From Haliotis rubra (lineage: Eukaryota), in NCBI RefSeq assembly GCF_003918875.1, contig NW_025767277.1, forward strand, positions 124,001-188,000: a stretch of DNA of 64,000 nucleotides, given 5' to 3'. Below the pieces are notes generated by a model. The model was not told where the DNA came from, did not search any database, and saw nothing but the letters and a program-made list of their open reading frames with translations. Below, in pieces: positions 54,564-64,000 of the stretch. The first letter of the stretch is position 1; every line of letters begins with the position of its first letter. The translations under genes were made by a program, and so were the position numbers.

Positions 54564-54782
54564 AAGATCAATTTGAAAGTGCAAATGTTTTCTCATGCAG
54601 GAATGGATCTCGACCATCGGGTTTATATGCAGATTCAGGGCATTAGGGACATGGTGATCCGCCCCTAATATGAGTTATGTCAGAGTTTAGTCCATTGAAT
54701 GAGTACTTCAAAGACGAATATGTGTGTGAGGCGGATATCCAAGAATGTGCATTTTCAAATGAGCCAATTTATACTTATTTTC

Positions 54783-55465
54783 TGGTCGGCCTGTCTCCTC
54801 GTGTGGTCTCTTCATGTGGTTCTTATGTATCGTTAAGTGGTCACATGGTCGGCCTGTCTCGTCGTGTGGTCTCTTGATGTGGTCCTCATGTGTCGTTAGG
54901 TGGTCACATGGTCGGCCTGTCTCGTCGTGTGGTCTCTTGATGTGGTCCTCATGTGTCGTTAAGTAGTCACGTAGTCGTCCTGTCTCGTCGTGTGGTCTCT
55001 TGATGTGGTCCTCATGTGTCGTTAGGTGGTCACATGGTCGGCCTGTCTCGTCGTGTGGTCTCTTGATGTGGTCCTCATGTGCCGTTAAGTAGTCACATGG
55101 TCGTCCTGTCTCGTCGTGTGGTCTCTTGATGTGGTCCTCATGTGTCGTTAAGTGGTCACATGGCCGGCCTGTCTCGTCGTGTGGTCTCTTGATGTGGTCC
55201 TCATGTGTCGTTAAGTAGTCACATGGTCGACCTGTCTCGTCGTGTGGTCTCTTGATGTGGTCCTCATGTGTCGTTAAGTGGTCACATGGTCGGCCTGTCT
55301 CGTCGTGTGGTCTCTTGATGTGGTCCTCATGTGTCGTTAAGTGGTCACATGGTCGGCCTGCCTCGTCGTGTGGTTCTCATGTGACGTTATGTGGTCATTT
55401 GGTCTCTCTGTGCCGTCGTGTGGTCTTCATAAGTCGTTAAGTGGTCATATTGTCGTCCTGTGTCA
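54783..55465. repeat. 63-bp tandem minisatellite, copy 2
   Basis: Same unit and same degenerate end as 48950-49795. Confidence 0.95.
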
Positions 55466-55494
55466 TCATGACCTTATATTGTCATTATCCTTAC

Positions 55495-55557
55495 CTTCTG
55501 TTTTTGACGGGATAAACACACCGAGATCATCACACATTTCTAACCCGAGTACCGCTT
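55495..55557 (-). CDS. Second copy of the putative linker exon
   Basis: One substitution (V to M) relative to 49826-49888; splice sites intact. Confidence 0.45.
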
Positions 55558-56747: not shown

Positions 56748-57230
56748 GAGTTTGACTTTTGTTAACTCGAGAATTGGACTGTTCCAACTCTTATCGGGTG
56801 TTTATGAGTGTAAAATGTACTGCTATCAGCAGCTAATGAGTGTTGTAACTATGAAACTGAACTCAGCCTGTTCCCCGCTTCGATCTGTGGCAATATTTAT
56901 ACACAAGATACACGTGTTTTGCTATTTGTAGCTGACATACTAGTGCGCATATCCGCTCACAAAGCCGGATGTTTACGTAGTCTCTGTGCTGTTGTCACTA
57001 GGGCTCTTCACGTGTGTTACTACTTTCTTTGAGAGTTTGACTTTTGTTAACTTTGAGGATTTGACTGTCCCAACTCATATCGGGCGTTTGTGAGTATAAA
57101 TGTATAGTTATCAGCAGCTAATTACTTTTGTAACTATGATAATGATCTCAGTGTTGTAACTAGGAAATTGAAGTTAACCTGTTTCCCACATCGGTGAAAC
57201 CTATCGTAATGTATACACAAGGTACACATG
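56748..57230. repeat. About 285-bp tandem repeat, interrupted by the LTR element and resuming at 63712-64000
   Basis: GAGTTTGACTTTTGTT at about 56748, 57033 and 63839. Confidence 0.85.
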
Positions 57231-58934
57231 TATCGCACTTAGAGATGAGCGTGCTGTTTCTCTCTAGTGGATGTCCTTGCATGAACAACACAAGTCTGTC
57301 TGCGGGTCCACAACTCTTTATTCAGTGCTACACTTTCAGGCGTAGTCACGACCTTCTCTGCAGCCTCTCTCCCTAGCCCTGGTGCCTGTACCGTTATATA
57401 CCCAGGGTTGGTCATTCTTGGTCCTTTGTCTTTGGCCCCCCTTCGCATCTGGTCAGTGATGAGTCTTCGCTCTCCCCATTTGCCCTTAATCCCAATTAGG
57501 CCTTTAATCATTATATCTGGACATGGAAATTACTGGCCAAAATGCACTTTGCTCGATGTGTTATTTGATATGTGGGATGACTTGGCCAAAGTGTCCTTTG
57601 TCCAGTGTACTGCTGATCAGGGGCTATTGTTTGATCCCTTGTCCAGTACTATATTTAGGGGACAGCATGTCTGCCTGATTAGCGTGGGACGGCTGCTCAT
57701 CTCTTAGTGACCTCCTTCCCGCTGTCACTATTATGAGTATTGCCCAGAGACAATGGCATCTCACTGACCAGTGATAGTGTTCAATTTCTTAATTTGCTTA
57801 ATGAGAGGGGGCCACTGGGCTTCTGATATTCTACCCTGGATATACTTCCCCGTCGTATCGTAATGACGTGACCTCACGTCCTTACGTGGAGAATGCGACC
57901 AATGACCGTGACCAACCCTGAGGTACAATTATGTTACGTATGAATGGAGATTACAATGTCAGTGGAGTACAGTATTGACATGTGAGTTACAAGCGTAAAT
58001 TTGGTGCCATTATCTATCACATTTAGTTTTATGAAGTGATGGACATAATGGGAAAACAATGAAATAGTGGTGTTATAAAATGGACATACATGGAAGTTAT
58101 GATATAGTCCAGTTACGCAGTGAATTTAAATGATGGACATGGTAGATAAAATCAATTAGTGTCATTATAAACATGTACATAAATGGAAGTTAGGATATAA
58201 TGTGGACCCGTATTTGTCATTTTACAAATCTCTCTTAACTGAGGGTCATAGATCGTAACTGTCCGAATAATCACGCTGTTTCCTGTATACGTCCCCATGG
58301 TAGCTTGACCCTCGTAACAGTTTTTCACTGCATAGCTGTGTTACACTCGCCCCCTCCTAATAAGAAATATCCGGAGGAGATTTCTTCAGAACCGAAAGTT
58401 CCATCTGAGCCAATTTCAGAGCTGATAACCACTTCCGAGCCAATCACAGTTTGTTTATATGCATAATATAGGCATCAACACATCTACATTATGAAATACC
58501 ATCATGGATCTATTATCAGTACAAATTCATATTTATGTTACCAATACAATCACAGATCTATTAACAACAATTCATATCATTAATACAACCATAGATCTAG
58601 TGATTGTACAATATATGTACACAACAGTCAGTGTCCTCGCATCTATTGTATCGAGATTATGTTGGTCCACGGGGTTTATCAGCAGTCCCGCTCACCACAC
58701 CGATTTATGTACCCATGTTTGACCATTATGTACACCATTTTCTCTCCAAGGATTAAAAGGTCAACAAGAGTTCTTTAACTTCAGTGGACCCACTCCACTT
58801 CTTTAAGGGGGAATATCAGCCGATATTCCTCTGTGCAACTGGGGAATCCATGCCATTCACTGATTGCACTGTGGTAGACCCCCAATTTATATACACGTTA
58901 GGACGCCTGTCCCGTATCACTCCCCAAAGGCACT

Positions 58935-60374
58935 TCAGGTTATGTGATCATTCGAGGTGTAACAACCCATATTAAGCCTGACTATGCCCAATGGCGGTTC
59001 AACAATGACCGTCGAGGCTACCGCTGCATTATCATGGCAAATTACTGAGAAGGTTAGTTTTGTCATTGTTGTTACCACCCATACGCCATCTGACAGATAT
59101 TCTGCTAAAGGCAAGACAGAATTTAACCTGATAATGGCTTTGCATTTGTTTTCAAAGTAAACTTTTCTGTTCACGAATAAGTAGTTATACACAGCTTACT
59201 TAGGTTTATAGGATAAACAGGACTTTTAATAGAACAGTAACTAGTTACCGGCTTAGTGCATATTTCTAATACTTCTGAGGTTGGTAATACGAATTTGGTT
59301 TGCTCAACATTTACCGCAAGCGACTCGGCTTCGAGCTGGTATTGTGCAACCATGTCACCTAATTCGTTAGTCTGTAGTTTCTCTATAAACCTCGGTACTG
59401 GTAGATTATGTACCTTATAAATTTCATATTTCCCATTAACATCTAATAAGGGAATTTTCAAGATCACTAAGATTTTATGCTCAGAACTTTGTAGGGTCCT
59501 ATAAAAACTCCATAACTCTTTACTCGGATCTCCTGGCAATTGTACCGTGGGTACTCATGTCAAGAAGTAATTTCTTCAGATTAGAAGGGGTGATAGTACT
59601 AGGTGTCAATCTTCCTAGTGCCAGGATGTTTAACTGTAACTGAAGATGTTGTAGATAAAAAATCGTTTTCTCAATAATTTCCCGAATTTCTCCCACGACC
59701 AGAGAACATCCCAGATACACTATCACGTAATGCTCAAACTTTAGCATTTTGTCTTCCAAAGTTCTCGTGATATTAAGGAACTTCATATCTACTTGGTGTA
59801 GGTCAACTGCCAGTTCATTGATCATATGCCTATTTTCTGAAATCTCAACCCTAGAAGTGTTCAATATGGATAGACTTTCTTCGACAACATCAGTTAAAGC
59901 TTTGTGATTCTTAAATAAAATTTCCACATTTTTGTGTATTGCTTCCAGGTCTTCTTTCGAGACTGTGCCGAACAGAAAACTCAATGCTTTCCCCACAAAT
60001 GGCAATACGGATCGCTTAGATCTACCTCTACTTAAAGTCTGAATGTCCTGGAACATTTCCTTCAGCTTTACTTGTGTAGCTTTTAGTGATGAAATATCAC
60101 TGCTTAAACCACTGAATAATACAAAAATATCCTTCTTCTTGGGATTATAGCTGCGAGTTATTATACTACTTGTAACTCTTTCAACACCCTCTATATCTGT
60201 TTCTAGCTTGTCAATAAGCTGTTTATAGGGTTCTAAGTCTATGACAAACGTCACCAGCCAATTTGACCTCATAATAGAAATGTCCTTTACTTTCTGGAAT
60301 ACTACATTTTCACGGATTAGCAATGAATTAACCATGGTTAACCCTAGGAGAAAGGAGATTACTGTTGCTGTCAT
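58935..60374 (-). pseudogene. env: env-like class I fusion glycoprotein (baculovirus F/errantivirus-like), frameshifted and C-terminally truncated
   Basis: Signal peptide MTATVISFLLGLTMVNS, furin site RGRSKR then SVLPFVGKALSFLFGT fusion peptide, heptad region and Cys-rich continuation across 3 frames; no TM segment found. Confidence 0.82.
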
Positions 60375-60466
60375 GTTCCTGTGAACAGAGATAACAACAA
60401 AATAACCTATCATTCCTTTTCGTTTCCTACATCCCATTCCCAGGATGATTCAAGATTACAAAAGGC

Positions 60467-61114
60467 CTACAATTGCCTCCAGTAATCGTTAGTCTTTGCG
60501 TTGTGTTCTTTGTGACCGTCTGTTTCTGTGCGTTGCCTATTACCTTCAATAACATTGATCTCCATCAATTCAGGGTCTGCGTCATCTAGTTCATCACTAT
60601 ACTCATCATTGCTAAGAATAGGGTCATGTTTTGTGGGTCCAGCAATTCTTACCCTTTTGTTTGTTATTTCAGCATTACTTTCAGAATGTGCTTGTTGCAA
60701 CGGACTCCTCATACGTCTAGATAATTCCATGAGGGGAATATCGTCTCCGTCGGAAGAGTCATCTCTTTCTTTACTGTATCTCCTAGCTATCTTATCTAGA
60801 GGTGTGTCACTGTCATCACCACTGTCGGTTTCACTGCTTTCTGGGGATACTACCAAAGTTGCTTTTCGACGGGCCCTAGTGTTTCCTGATTGTGGAATTT
60901 CCCAATGATCTATTTTAGCTAATCTCAAATTTCCTGCATGTGCTTCCATTTTCCCCATGATACATCTCTTGTTTAGCCGAAAGGTTTTATTTGTGTTATT
61001 TACTATCATTACCGGGATTTCTCCTTTCTTATTCAGTTTGCCGACAGAATTCCCTAGCATTAAACCTGGCTCAGAATTGATATAGTCTTCCCCATTTCCT
61101 TTAATTTCATACAA
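60467..61114 (-). pseudogene. pol: pol remnant: post-protease segment fused to an integrase C-terminal tail (RT, RNase H and IN core absent)
   Basis: GEIPVMIVNNTNKTFRLNKRCIMG resembles the gypsy PR-RT linker; HAGNLR followed by an acidic low-complexity tail resembles an IN C-terminus; no YxDD or DDE motif. Confidence 0.6.
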
Positions 61115-61815
61115 AGTGGTGGTATCAAAATATGTCTTTTTCCTAGCCTTAAGTCGAATCGTTTCCTTAAATTCTGCTCTTTCATTCGAGTAGTAACTGC
61201 CTCAGCAAAACTATTCGGGTTATCCCTCATAATTTTAATCTTTAAATAATCGTGTCTCAAGCCTTCAACAAAAAATCCTATCAGTTGGCGTTCAACTGCA
61301 CTATTACTCGCTTGCCCTTGTTCCACATAAGCCTCTTCCGCTATGGCTAATAGCCTTTCGGCGAACACCTGAACAGTTTCATCTTGGCGTTGCCTTAGTT
61401 TTTGTAATAGCGCAAATGCATACTGAGGGTCTGTCACCTCGGCGAAACGTGACGTTAGTTCTTTCTTAACCACTGCCCATGTACAGCCTGGGTTATCCTG
61501 TATATATCTCTGTAAGAAATCGCTTACTGGTCCCCAACTACTCTGAAAAGCCACTAATCTTATCCTATCCACTGGGATGCCCGCCAAGCTCACATACTTA
61601 TCAAGGGACTTTATCCACTCTTTAAATTTCTTAGGATCTCCTTCAAATGGCTGGACATATTGCGATAAACCCTGCGAAGTTATCGCCTGTGCCAGTTGTC
61701 CCATTTGTGATTCTACCATTGCTGACAGTGGCCCTATACCGGCCATTATGGTTTCCGGTAGCTTTCCTAATTGTACTGCTATATGGTTAAAAAGTGCTTC
61801 TACAACTTCTGCCAT
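61060..61815 (-). CDS. gag: Ty3/gypsy Gag capsid (C-terminally truncated)
   Basis: PFEGDPKKFKEWI, TWAVVKKELTSRF, LRQRQDETVQVFAERL and FVEGLR capsid motifs; likely ATG at 61815. Confidence 0.88.
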   Translation of the reverse strand: MAEVVEALFNHIAVQLGKLPETIMAGIGPLSAMVESQMGQLAQAITSQGLSQYVQPFEGDPKKFKEWIKSLDKYVSLAGIPVDRIRLVAFQSSWGPVSDFLQRYIQDNPGCTWAVVKKELTSRFAEVTDPQYAFALLQKLRQRQDETVQVFAERLLAIAEEAYVEQGQASNSAVERQLIGFFVEGLRHDYLKIKIMRDNPNSFAEAVTTRMKEQNLRKRFDLRLGKRHILIPPLCMKLKEMGKTISILSQV

Positions 61816-62038
61816 TTTTCGTACGACCTTTTTTAAACGTCCTAGACGTCCTAGATCGTGACTGTCCGAATAATCACGCTGTTTCCTGTATACGGGACCA
61901 TCCCCATAGTAGCTTGACCCTCGTAACAGATTTTCACTGTATAGCTGTGTTACAGCTACAATTACATTCCACTTAGATATAATGGGACCTAACAGAAATA
62001 TGATGGTGTGTAAAGTGTTTGCGGAATTCAATGATGTA

Positions 62039-63303
62039 TACTGAGTCAAAAAGAAACTTCACAAAATGTAATTTGAAAAATAATGAATAATTTTTCTCTG
62101 ATGATACATCTATGTGTCTGAAATGGAATCCCTATCTTTCGACTCTAGAAAAACGTTAGCAAAACCCACTCAAACCCATCCATTCGTCGTGCAAATGACA
62201 TTAGTGCCAAATCAGGTTTTGCACGTGCAGTCGATCACGTAATCTTCGCATCGAAGTTTTCTTTATATGCACGTGTTTGCATTGGCCATTTCTAACGGTA
62301 CTTGAAATGCCACGATTGTCAAATGTGCAACGTGAACGTGCCGTTGGCATGTTGCAAGCGGGAAGATCAGTTACTGACGTCGCAAGAGCAATGGGATGCA
62401 GCCGTCGTACTGTGTATGACTTGCGACGTCGTCTACAATAAACTGGCACCACCTCTGATCGCCCAAGGTCGGGTCGTCGACGTGTGACGTCACGAGCAGA
62501 AGACCATCAAATCGTCCTACGTCACCTACGTGACAGATTTCTGCCGGCTACACGAACCAGGGCTGAGATGTTTACAGGTCGACTGTCCTCACAGACCATT
62601 CGAAATCGGTTGCGGGCTGCCAATCTCCATTCTCGACATCCATATCGTGGGCCAATATTGACGCCGTTTCATCAACGTCAACGTCTGCTGTGGGCCCAAC
62701 GTCACCTCAGATGGACCCAGAGAGACTGGAATCGAGTCGTCTTTAGCGATGAATCCAGGTTTACCCTCAGATTCGCGGACGGCAGGCATAGAGTCTGGAG
62801 ACGACGTCGTGAACGGTAAGCCCAATGTTGTGTACAAGAAGTCGAGAGATTCCGGGGCGGAAGTTGCATGGTGTGAGGTGCTTTCTGTGAGAACAACCGT
62901 TCTCGACTTCTGGTCATCCGTGGAAACCTCACAGCTGCTGCTTACCGTGACCAGGTGCTCACCCCTGAACTCGTTCCTTTCATGGCCGCTCAAGGCCCAG
63001 GTCTACAGTTCCAGCATGATAATGCTCGGCTGCATACCGCGATGTTGACACGAAATTTCCTTCAAAACGCTGGAATCAATGTCATGGACTGGCCATCGAG
63101 GTACCCTGACCTTAAACCAATAGAGCACGTTTGATATGCACTTGGGAGAAGGGCTTCGTGGTCTTAGGAACCAACCTCAGAATTTGCAGGAACTTGGCGC
63201 TGCCTTGCAAGAGCAATGGTGCAGAATCCCCAACCACGTGTTCACAAGCATCAGGCAGTCGATGAGGAGACGGTGTTTGGCAGTGGTGAATGCGCGGGGC
63301 GGG
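62039..63303 (+). mobile_element. Tc1 (DD34E) transposon with pseudogenised transposase 62307-63303; right TIR lost
   Basis: Left end TA|TACTGAGTCAAAAAGAAAC; MPRLS...RERAVGM, VVFSDESRF, FQHDNAR and WPSRYPDLKPIEH motifs; several stops and a frameshift. Confidence 0.92.
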
Positions 63304-64000
63304 GGTGGTGGTGGATGGTGGGAGCATAATCATTTCCTTTTTAAATCTGGGCACCCAGAGACGGGTACAGTCTTTGGCATTATATCTGGACATGGAAATT
63401 ACTAGCCAAAATGCACTTTGCTCGATGTGTTAGTTTATATGTGGGATGACTTGGCCAAAGTGTCCTTTGTCCAGTGTACTGCTGATCAGGGGCTATTGTT
63501 TGATCCCTTGTCCAGTACTATATTTAGGGGACAGCATGTGTGCCTGATTAGCGTGGGACGGCTGCTCATCTCTTAGTGACCTCCTTCCCGCTGTCACTAT
63601 TATGAGTATTGCCCAGAGACAATGGCATCTCACTGACCAGTGATAGTGTTCAATTTCTTAATTTGCTTAATGAGAGGGGGCCACTGGGCTTCTGATATTC
63701 TACCCTGGATACATGCTTTGATGTTGTTGTTTTTTTAGCGGACATCCAGTGCGCATATCCGCTCACAATGCCGGATGTTTACGTAGTCTCTGTGCTGTAG
63801 TCGGTAGGGCTCTTCACGTGTGTTACTACATTCTTTGAGAGTTTGACTTTTGTTTACTTTGAGGATTGGACTGCCCCAACTCTTATCGGGCGTTTGAGAG
63901 TATAAATGTATAGTTATCAGCAGCTAATGCGGGTTGTAACTATGACACTGAACTCAGTCTGCTTCCCAGTTCGGCGAAATCTATGGCAATGTTTACACAC

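Follow-up and report, generated by a model that had tools for sequence, protein, structure and literature searches.

The window analyzed here, a 64-kb stretch of the Haliotis rubra genome, carries on its minus strand a 3.7-kb relic (61954-58231) of a 9.2-kb Ty3/gypsy family, in which gag, an enzyme-less pol remnant and env follow one another in minus-strand order. The initial annotation had recognized an env-bearing Ty3/gypsy element of this layout, an assignment that holds and is strengthened by the protease-RT-RNase H-integrase order of sibling copies; the element is real, but the span first given to it was too narrow, since LTR remnants extend it to the limits above. These remnants form a ~110-bp direct repeat with both units starting TGTAACA, at 61954 and 58345. 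By comparison with siblings, the 5' remnant (61848-61954) represents the first ~107-127 bp of a ~590-bp LTR, while the 3' remnant (58231-58345, ~115 bp) has lost the distal ~450 bp, and with it the target site duplication (TSD) and ~20 bp of host sequence. A search for the missing LTR portions elsewhere in the 64-kb window found none. A polypurine tract (58346-58358), read from the sequence, abuts the 3' LTR, and the 3' untranslated region (58359-58933) is 83-95% identical to that of siblings. Sibling copies are referred to below by their contig loci in the same genome, G000 (C2087, C2232, C2452 and so on).

The gag ORF (61060-61815, minus strand, ATG at 61815) comprises the capsid part only, with homology stopping at ~61136, and matches the Pfam families Ty3_capsid (E 7.5e-6) and Retrotrans_gag (E 2e-4), each below its cut-off. 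It has no zinc knuckle, a domain (zf-CCHC) found in a sibling gag. The enzymes were correctly described as deleted: a 792-nt deletion, with an identical junction in C2232, removed the Gag zinc knuckle and the protease, and a 2,850-nt in-frame deletion removed RT, RNase H and integrase, leaving a junction with a short microhomology at 60942-60949 that is common to C2232 and C2452. What remains of pol is a 244-aa frame (61201-60467, minus strand) in which a stub of the protease-RT spacer (60942-61147), itself without a Pfam domain, is joined to the acidic C-terminal tail of Pol from beyond the integrase core (60467-60949), both delimited by sibling comparison; a Pfam search with this frame returned zero matches. 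A further deletion at the 5' end joins positions ~740 and 1461 of the full-length sibling C2087 and took the remainder of the LTR, the primer-binding site and the leader.

The env region (58937-60413, minus strand, ATG at 60413 or 60374) is broken in this copy, as had been noted, with frame breaks near 59547 and 59180 that spread residues 1-460 of a 664-aa sibling frame over three frames. The N-terminal features named in the initial annotation could all be located: a predicted signal peptide at 60374-60315, which has a Kyte-Doolittle peak of 1.86 and aligns with the N-termini of homologues, the furin-type cleavage motif RGRSKR at 60029-60012, read in the env frame, and directly behind it a predicted fusion peptide, SVLPFVGKALSFLFGT, at 60011-59964, identified through conserved positions in the homologue alignment. 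Missing are the C-terminal ~200 codons encoding the stalk, membrane anchor and tail, so that the transmembrane anchor, at residues 544-562 of the sibling frame, is present only in siblings.

The element lies in repetitive DNA. A decayed Tc1/mariner transposase remnant (62205-63400, plus strand), with HTH_23 and HTH_Tnp_Tc3_2 above and DDE_3 below the Pfam cut-off, is located just upstream of it, and DNA sequencing runs contain the sequence from ~62016 onward in extremely high copy number. Two pairs of direct repeats (57509-57808/63378-63677, 99% over 300 bp; 56942-57152/63748-63958, 91% over 211 bp) flank the element together with the Tc1 remnant and are part of dispersed host repeats. Further away, a tandem array with a 63-bp period (54657-55500) reads as an open repetitive frame.

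Paralogue comparison identified the insertion target as a dispersed host repeat, whose left part lies at 57225-58228 on the plus strand and whose right part lies at 61955-62050. All five paralogues that were fetched, from 26 matches, are empty sites joining the left repeat part directly to the equivalent of 61955-62050, and all five contain 18-25 bp that are absent from the window, which indicates that truncation of the 3' LTR postdates insertion. The empty-site joint also occurs in one sequencing run; we do not claim an insertion polymorphism from it, as the flank is a multicopy repeat.

In total, the window copy has sustained four internal deletions (primer site; Gag zinc knuckle and protease; RT-RNase H-integrase; env stalk and membrane anchor), three of them with short microhomologies of 5-8 bp at their junctions, in addition to the two env frame breaks and the truncated 3' LTR. 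Env changes private to this copy number 5 synonymous to 15 nonsynonymous against an expected synonymous share of 0.23 (p=0.51), and thus appear neutral. Each LTR has lost the greater part of its length and the primer site is missing, so the cis signals are not intact; with the env anchor lost as well, the copy can neither be reverse-transcribed nor make an anchored Env. Judged by its sequence the window copy is dead, and the suggestion in the initial annotation that it kept its structural genes does not hold, given a truncated gag, an env without anchor and neutral private changes. These observations also bear on whether env or gag at this locus could have been domesticated by the host in the manner of syncytin or Iris. 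Over 301 codons, which include the signal peptide, furin site and fusion peptide, env is still open, but the two frame breaks, the missing membrane anchor, the neutrality of the private changes, the largely deleted 5' LTR and the empty site in 5/5 paralogous repeats make domestication exceedingly improbable.

Searches of the animal's own genome returned at least 111 matches for env (128 of 214 candidates scored) and at least 119 for gag (150 of 154 candidates scored), among which the family of the window copy accounts for ~18 loci. The natural full-length copy C2087, used as a map, is ~9.2 kb long with LTRs of ~590 bp and TG..CA ends. Siblings 92-97% identical to the window element encode Asp_protease, RVT_1, RT_RNaseH, Integrase_H2C2 and rve in this order, which is that of Ty3/gypsy elements (Metaviridae); the window copy itself has lost these domains. 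LTRs, a primer site, a polypurine tract and a short TSD, as expected of a Ty3/gypsy LTR element, are all found at the level of the family. Of 11 loci examined, 4 have a TSD of 4 bp, and the two LTRs of an element diverge by 0.2-8.8%. The primer site corresponds to the tRNA-His end given in PMC13524379, set 18 nt behind the LTR, and among the nine copies listed the 12-nt match is perfect in six and has one mismatch in three. Self-priming was considered as a cause of the 18-nt gap and rejected, as LTR complementarity does not exceed 7 nt, and tRNA-His is preferred. At C2497, at least five family copies lie on the same strand of one contig; three share a 3' flank and two share both flanks, which identifies those copies as segmental duplicates, and one C2497 copy carries LTRs of two subtypes.

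Substitutions common to several family copies are 20 synonymous to 25 nonsynonymous in env (p=0.001), 19:16 in gag and 15:16 in RT (13 copies offered, with four divergent or error-rich ones left out), a pattern showing that the family replicated under purifying selection on gag, pol and env. The initial annotation had named an intact family member as the real target; the full-length copy C2087 was found, and env is interrupted or partial in all 15 family rows that cover it. Between RNase H and integrase, an AlphaFold model of a sibling (mean pLDDT 72, pTM 0.47) places RNase H at residues 32-158, followed by a low-confidence linker, helices at 227-256 and strands at 257-260, 263-268 and 275-278, after which comes the integrase zinc-finger helix. 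In this model the sibling has an RNase H and a "mini" domain without a pseudo-RNase H, which is the mark of an "ancient errantivirus" in PMC13524379 (RNase H, then N-terminal helices and three short strands). Named Pol relatives of this bridge region are mollusc proteins and bivalve-symbiont bins (50-63%).

The env gene groups with F-type fusogens, as the initial annotation had proposed. Pfam Baculo_F matches the first 309-aa env piece of the window with an E value of 6.3e-5 and the natural 664-aa sibling frame with 52.1 bits against a cut-off of 24.1, and 35 of 61 alignment members match at E≤0.001. Of 7,991 candidates scored against the sibling frame, 76 are homologous at E≤0.001, and in 61 of these an R-x-K/R-R site precedes a hydrophobic start that contains proline; the fusion-peptide positions P, G, L, F, G and T are each kept in at least 90% of these 61 rows. 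At the sequence level, the env piece of the window had no PDB match at E≤0.001 and 14 weak ones (best 0.035), leaving fold comparison as the only informative approach. The fold model, built from the sibling frame and not from the window's own pieces, has a pLDDT of 73 (<50 in the fusion-peptide region) and a pTM of 0.58. Its best viral match in Foldseek is the baculovirus F protein Ld130 (E 9e-21) and its best PDB match is respiratory syncytial virus (RSV) F (E 3e-8), with NDV F also matched; TM-scores to F proteins are low (0.25-0.45), at 10-17% identity. On these grounds env is a predicted F-type class I fusogen. At rank 12, the viral matches include an uncharacterized abalone herpesvirus protein (A0A145VUZ2, E 2.9e-15, 14% identity to the Env model); the fold of F would thus occur in a virus that infects the host's own genus, and identity this low does not point to recent exchange.

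Named env homologues are from molluscs (Haliotis, Mytilus, Argopecten, Lottia and Batillaria); the exceptions are a single bacterial bin label and a single weak match to an insect. The initial annotation had guessed a mollusc host, and one protein named Haliotis rubra is 100% identical over 658 aa to the env frame of another family in G000, which agrees with this abalone as the very likely host. Several env and Pol homologues (P0068, P0093, P0128, P0189 and similar) are filed under the symbionts Sedimenticola, Thiodiazotropha and a Solemya symbiont, and are probably host bivalve DNA in bacterial bins. A Lottia gigantea gene model (P0031) combines gag, zinc knuckle, Pol tail and env in one protein with no enzymes and is either a pol-less limpet copy or a gene-model artifact. 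Other F-env families of G000 include C2761 (G000:C2761:153518-158629), which is 98-99% identical to the full-length C170 and C1031 with all of pol missing, as well as C309 and C342 without pol, C2190 without most of RT, and C1849, which has only integrase and env. In the three pol-less ones, C2761, C309 and C342, the His primer site again lies at a distance from the LTR.

The junctions of the window copy recur elsewhere in the genome, as a search for shared deletions revealed. With a junction-spanning DNA search (37/37 candidates scored), the pol junction was found to be contiguous at 3 of 18 family loci (the window, C2232 and C2452), and both junctions at 2 of 18. The flanks of C2232 and C2452 do not match those of the window, so that the three loci have unrelated flanks, and segmental duplication was rejected as the source of the shared junction for this reason. 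C2452 has the TSD TATG and LTRs that differ at 1 of 577 sites (0.2%), and its gag already has two frameshifts and a stop, a combination of youth and disablement expected from the copying of a defective template. A TSD and young LTRs are found in C2452 only. Each of the three minority alleles carried by the stub in the window also occurs in both C2232 and C2452. In two sequencing runs of another organism, guessed to be RNA, family contigs continue into pol at the positions of the window's junctions, an observation to which we give no weight as evidence.

We favor the interpretation that the shared junction points to a small, trans-mobilized nonautonomous sublineage, although phylogeny complicates it: a clade of the three pol-deleted copies is rejected by the AU test in gag (p 0.0007; 12 rows, 5 omitted for low cover), pol tail/env (p 0.002; 13 rows, 4 omitted) and the 3' UTR (p 2e-5; 13 rows, 4 omitted). 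Our explanation for these trees is recombination, which would make the window copy a mosaic; its gag alleles follow C2497c, C2087 and C2190, and its UTR and LTR follow C2319a and C2497f, as template switching among RNAs packaged together, an established retroviral mechanism, would be expected to produce. Support for a single origin of the three copies would then come from the junction itself and the three linked SNPs.

The same trees are open to a reading as plain debris, according to which full-length insertions suffered the same deletion later at several loci, either because microhomology-mediated repair acted at a hotspot or because copies converted one another ectopically, and no pol-less RNA was ever mobilized. 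The rejected monophyly in three regions fits this account, as do the 5-8-bp microhomologies, the lack of a TSD at C2232 and the private, different deletions seen in most family copies. In C2497f, moreover, an independent break lies no more than a few bases from the left breakpoint of the shared deletion, so this site may be a hotspot. Against the debris reading stand the base-exact recurrence of one junction at three unlinked loci and of both junctions at two, the alleles shared beside the junction, and the very young C2452 insertion that already has the deletion and several disabling changes; we therefore regard plain debris as unlikely.

A different possibility is that the pol-deleted form was itself selected as a helper-dependent "gag-protease-env" element, supplying its own Gag, protease and Env, borrowing only RT and integrase and spreading like a defective virus. 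In favor of this, the reading frame is preserved across the pol deletion, which in C2452 leaves a protease-tail frame of 416 aa, but the chance of an in-frame deletion is one in three, and none of the three pol-deleted copies has an uninterrupted env. Some frameshifts in the family, with 22 and 52 in env of two copies, may be assembly errors. Env and gag changes private to C2452 include 15 synonymous among 26 (p=1.4e-4), yet the pol-retaining C2497c has the same excess (17 of 33), so that unsampled autonomous ancestors explain it. Each of four other F-env families in G000 has one RT-less, env-keeping copy, and among 45 gag-env pairs in the genome, assembled by hand from env and gag matches with unpaired matches uncounted, 7 are ≤2.3 kb apart, 6 intermediate and 32 near full length. 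This census was, however, ascertained by env, the pol-less copies of other families are seen once each, and a C2190 copy of the window's own family lost env instead. Defective LTR elements by default lose their center and keep their ends. Together these points make the selected element very unlikely. The broader proposition, that abalone F-env errantiviruses repeatedly yield pol-less satellites in which gag, sometimes protease, and env remain under selection, with the window copy a decayed member, is in our view very unlikely; in its full form, with spread that borrows only RT and integrase from helpers and counterparts in at least four other families, we rate it just as low.

We conclude that the env-bearing Ty3/gypsy element in the window is a dead copy with several deletions, and it probably derives from a pol-deleted sublineage that was copied with the enzymes of full-length relatives. 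The initial annotation had offered debris and a helper-dependent derivative as alternatives; both seem to apply, with the shared junction indicating a likely helper-dependent ancestor and the decay a copy that is now debris. In the history we propose, a 9.2-kb family with gag, a -1-frame pol (protease, RT, RNase H, integrase) and env replicated under purifying selection, as the shared substitutions attest. The 2,850-nt RT-RNase H-integrase deletion, and later the 792-nt NC-PR deletion, would have arisen at short microhomologies. RNAs without pol that kept LTRs, primer site and polypurine tract could then have been packaged alongside full-length RNA and reverse-transcribed in trans, and template switching would have made the window copy a mosaic. 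The copy inserted into the dispersed host repeat and lost most of its 3' LTR after insertion, as the empty sites record, whereas the primer site and env C terminus were presumably also lost at this stage; it now seems to drift neutrally. By analogy with Drosophila gypsy, Env of the parent family would be cleaved by furin, insert its fusion peptide and mediate cell-to-cell transfer of particles.

The family belongs to a class already in print, so the novelty outside insects that the initial annotation anticipated does not stand. Chary and Hayashi (PMC13524379) describe F-env Ty3/gypsy elements across metazoans, including bivalves and gastropods, and their operational definition of an errantivirus, an env ORF after pol with homology to glycoprotein F or gB and an Env with signal peptide, furin site, fusion peptide and transmembrane anchor, describes the abalone family. 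In 45 of the 46 Mollusca rows of that catalogue, every env is ENV_F and no Haliotis element appears; its genome table lists Haliotis rubra and H. rufescens as "yes - No intact copies", H. rubra having pol-env candidates. The catalogued mollusc "ancient errantiviruses," such as Gibbula magus errantivirus 1 and Steromphala cineraria errantivirus 1, share with the abalone family the gag-pol-env order, an F-type env with furin site and fusion peptide, the RNase H and mini bridge (predicted here) and the set-back tRNA-His primer site, a His primer occurring in 10 of 45 mollusc rows with an offset of 8-21 nt in 9 of them. The abalone family differs from them in being decayed in G000 and in having a shared pol-deleted form. 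PMC13524379 catalogues only intact copies, its main text does not use the term "non-autonomous", and none of the titles and abstract openings listed by literature searches describes pol-less, env-retaining derivatives of mollusc Ty3/gypsy elements. What the abalone family likely adds is an enzyme-less form copied in trans to several sites, of a kind that surveys of intact copies miss.

Drosophila gypsy and ZAM are likewise Ty3/gypsy elements with an F-type third ORF, and insect errantiviruses have a 4-bp TSD, as does the abalone family. Insect elements differ in mostly having a duplicated pseudo-RNase H and Ser, Lys or Leu primers (PMC13524379). Baculovirus F (Ld130) and pneumo- and paramyxovirus F share a fold class with abalone Env by the Baculo_F and Foldseek matches, and 10-17% identity gives no sign of recent capture. 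The Discussion of PMC13524379 notes that infectivity is shown only for Drosophila elements, and the paper leaves open the role of Env in the spread of non-insect errantiviruses; should selection prove to have retained env in pol-less copies, this would suggest indirectly, from genetics, that Env matters there. Nonautonomous derivatives are also described for another Gypsy lineage (PMC12440569). The nearest parallels to the pol-deleted form are the trans-complemented endogenous retroviruses (ERVs) treated in PMC10924933 (IAP I-delta-1, ETn/MusD, recKoRV and bovine D-type ERVK), which keep gag and env ends, and for which template switching and recombination with competent copies are described in bovine ERVK. 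Like the abalone copies, these have lost their center, are mobilized in trans and recombine pervasively; they differ in being retroviruses of vertebrates, several of which have foreign sequence inserted in the center and are present in many copies, whereas the abalone form is a simple deletion in three copies of a Ty3/gypsy element. The abalone sublineage would thus be a small invertebrate example of the trans-complementation and reverse-transcription recombination known from vertebrate ERVs.
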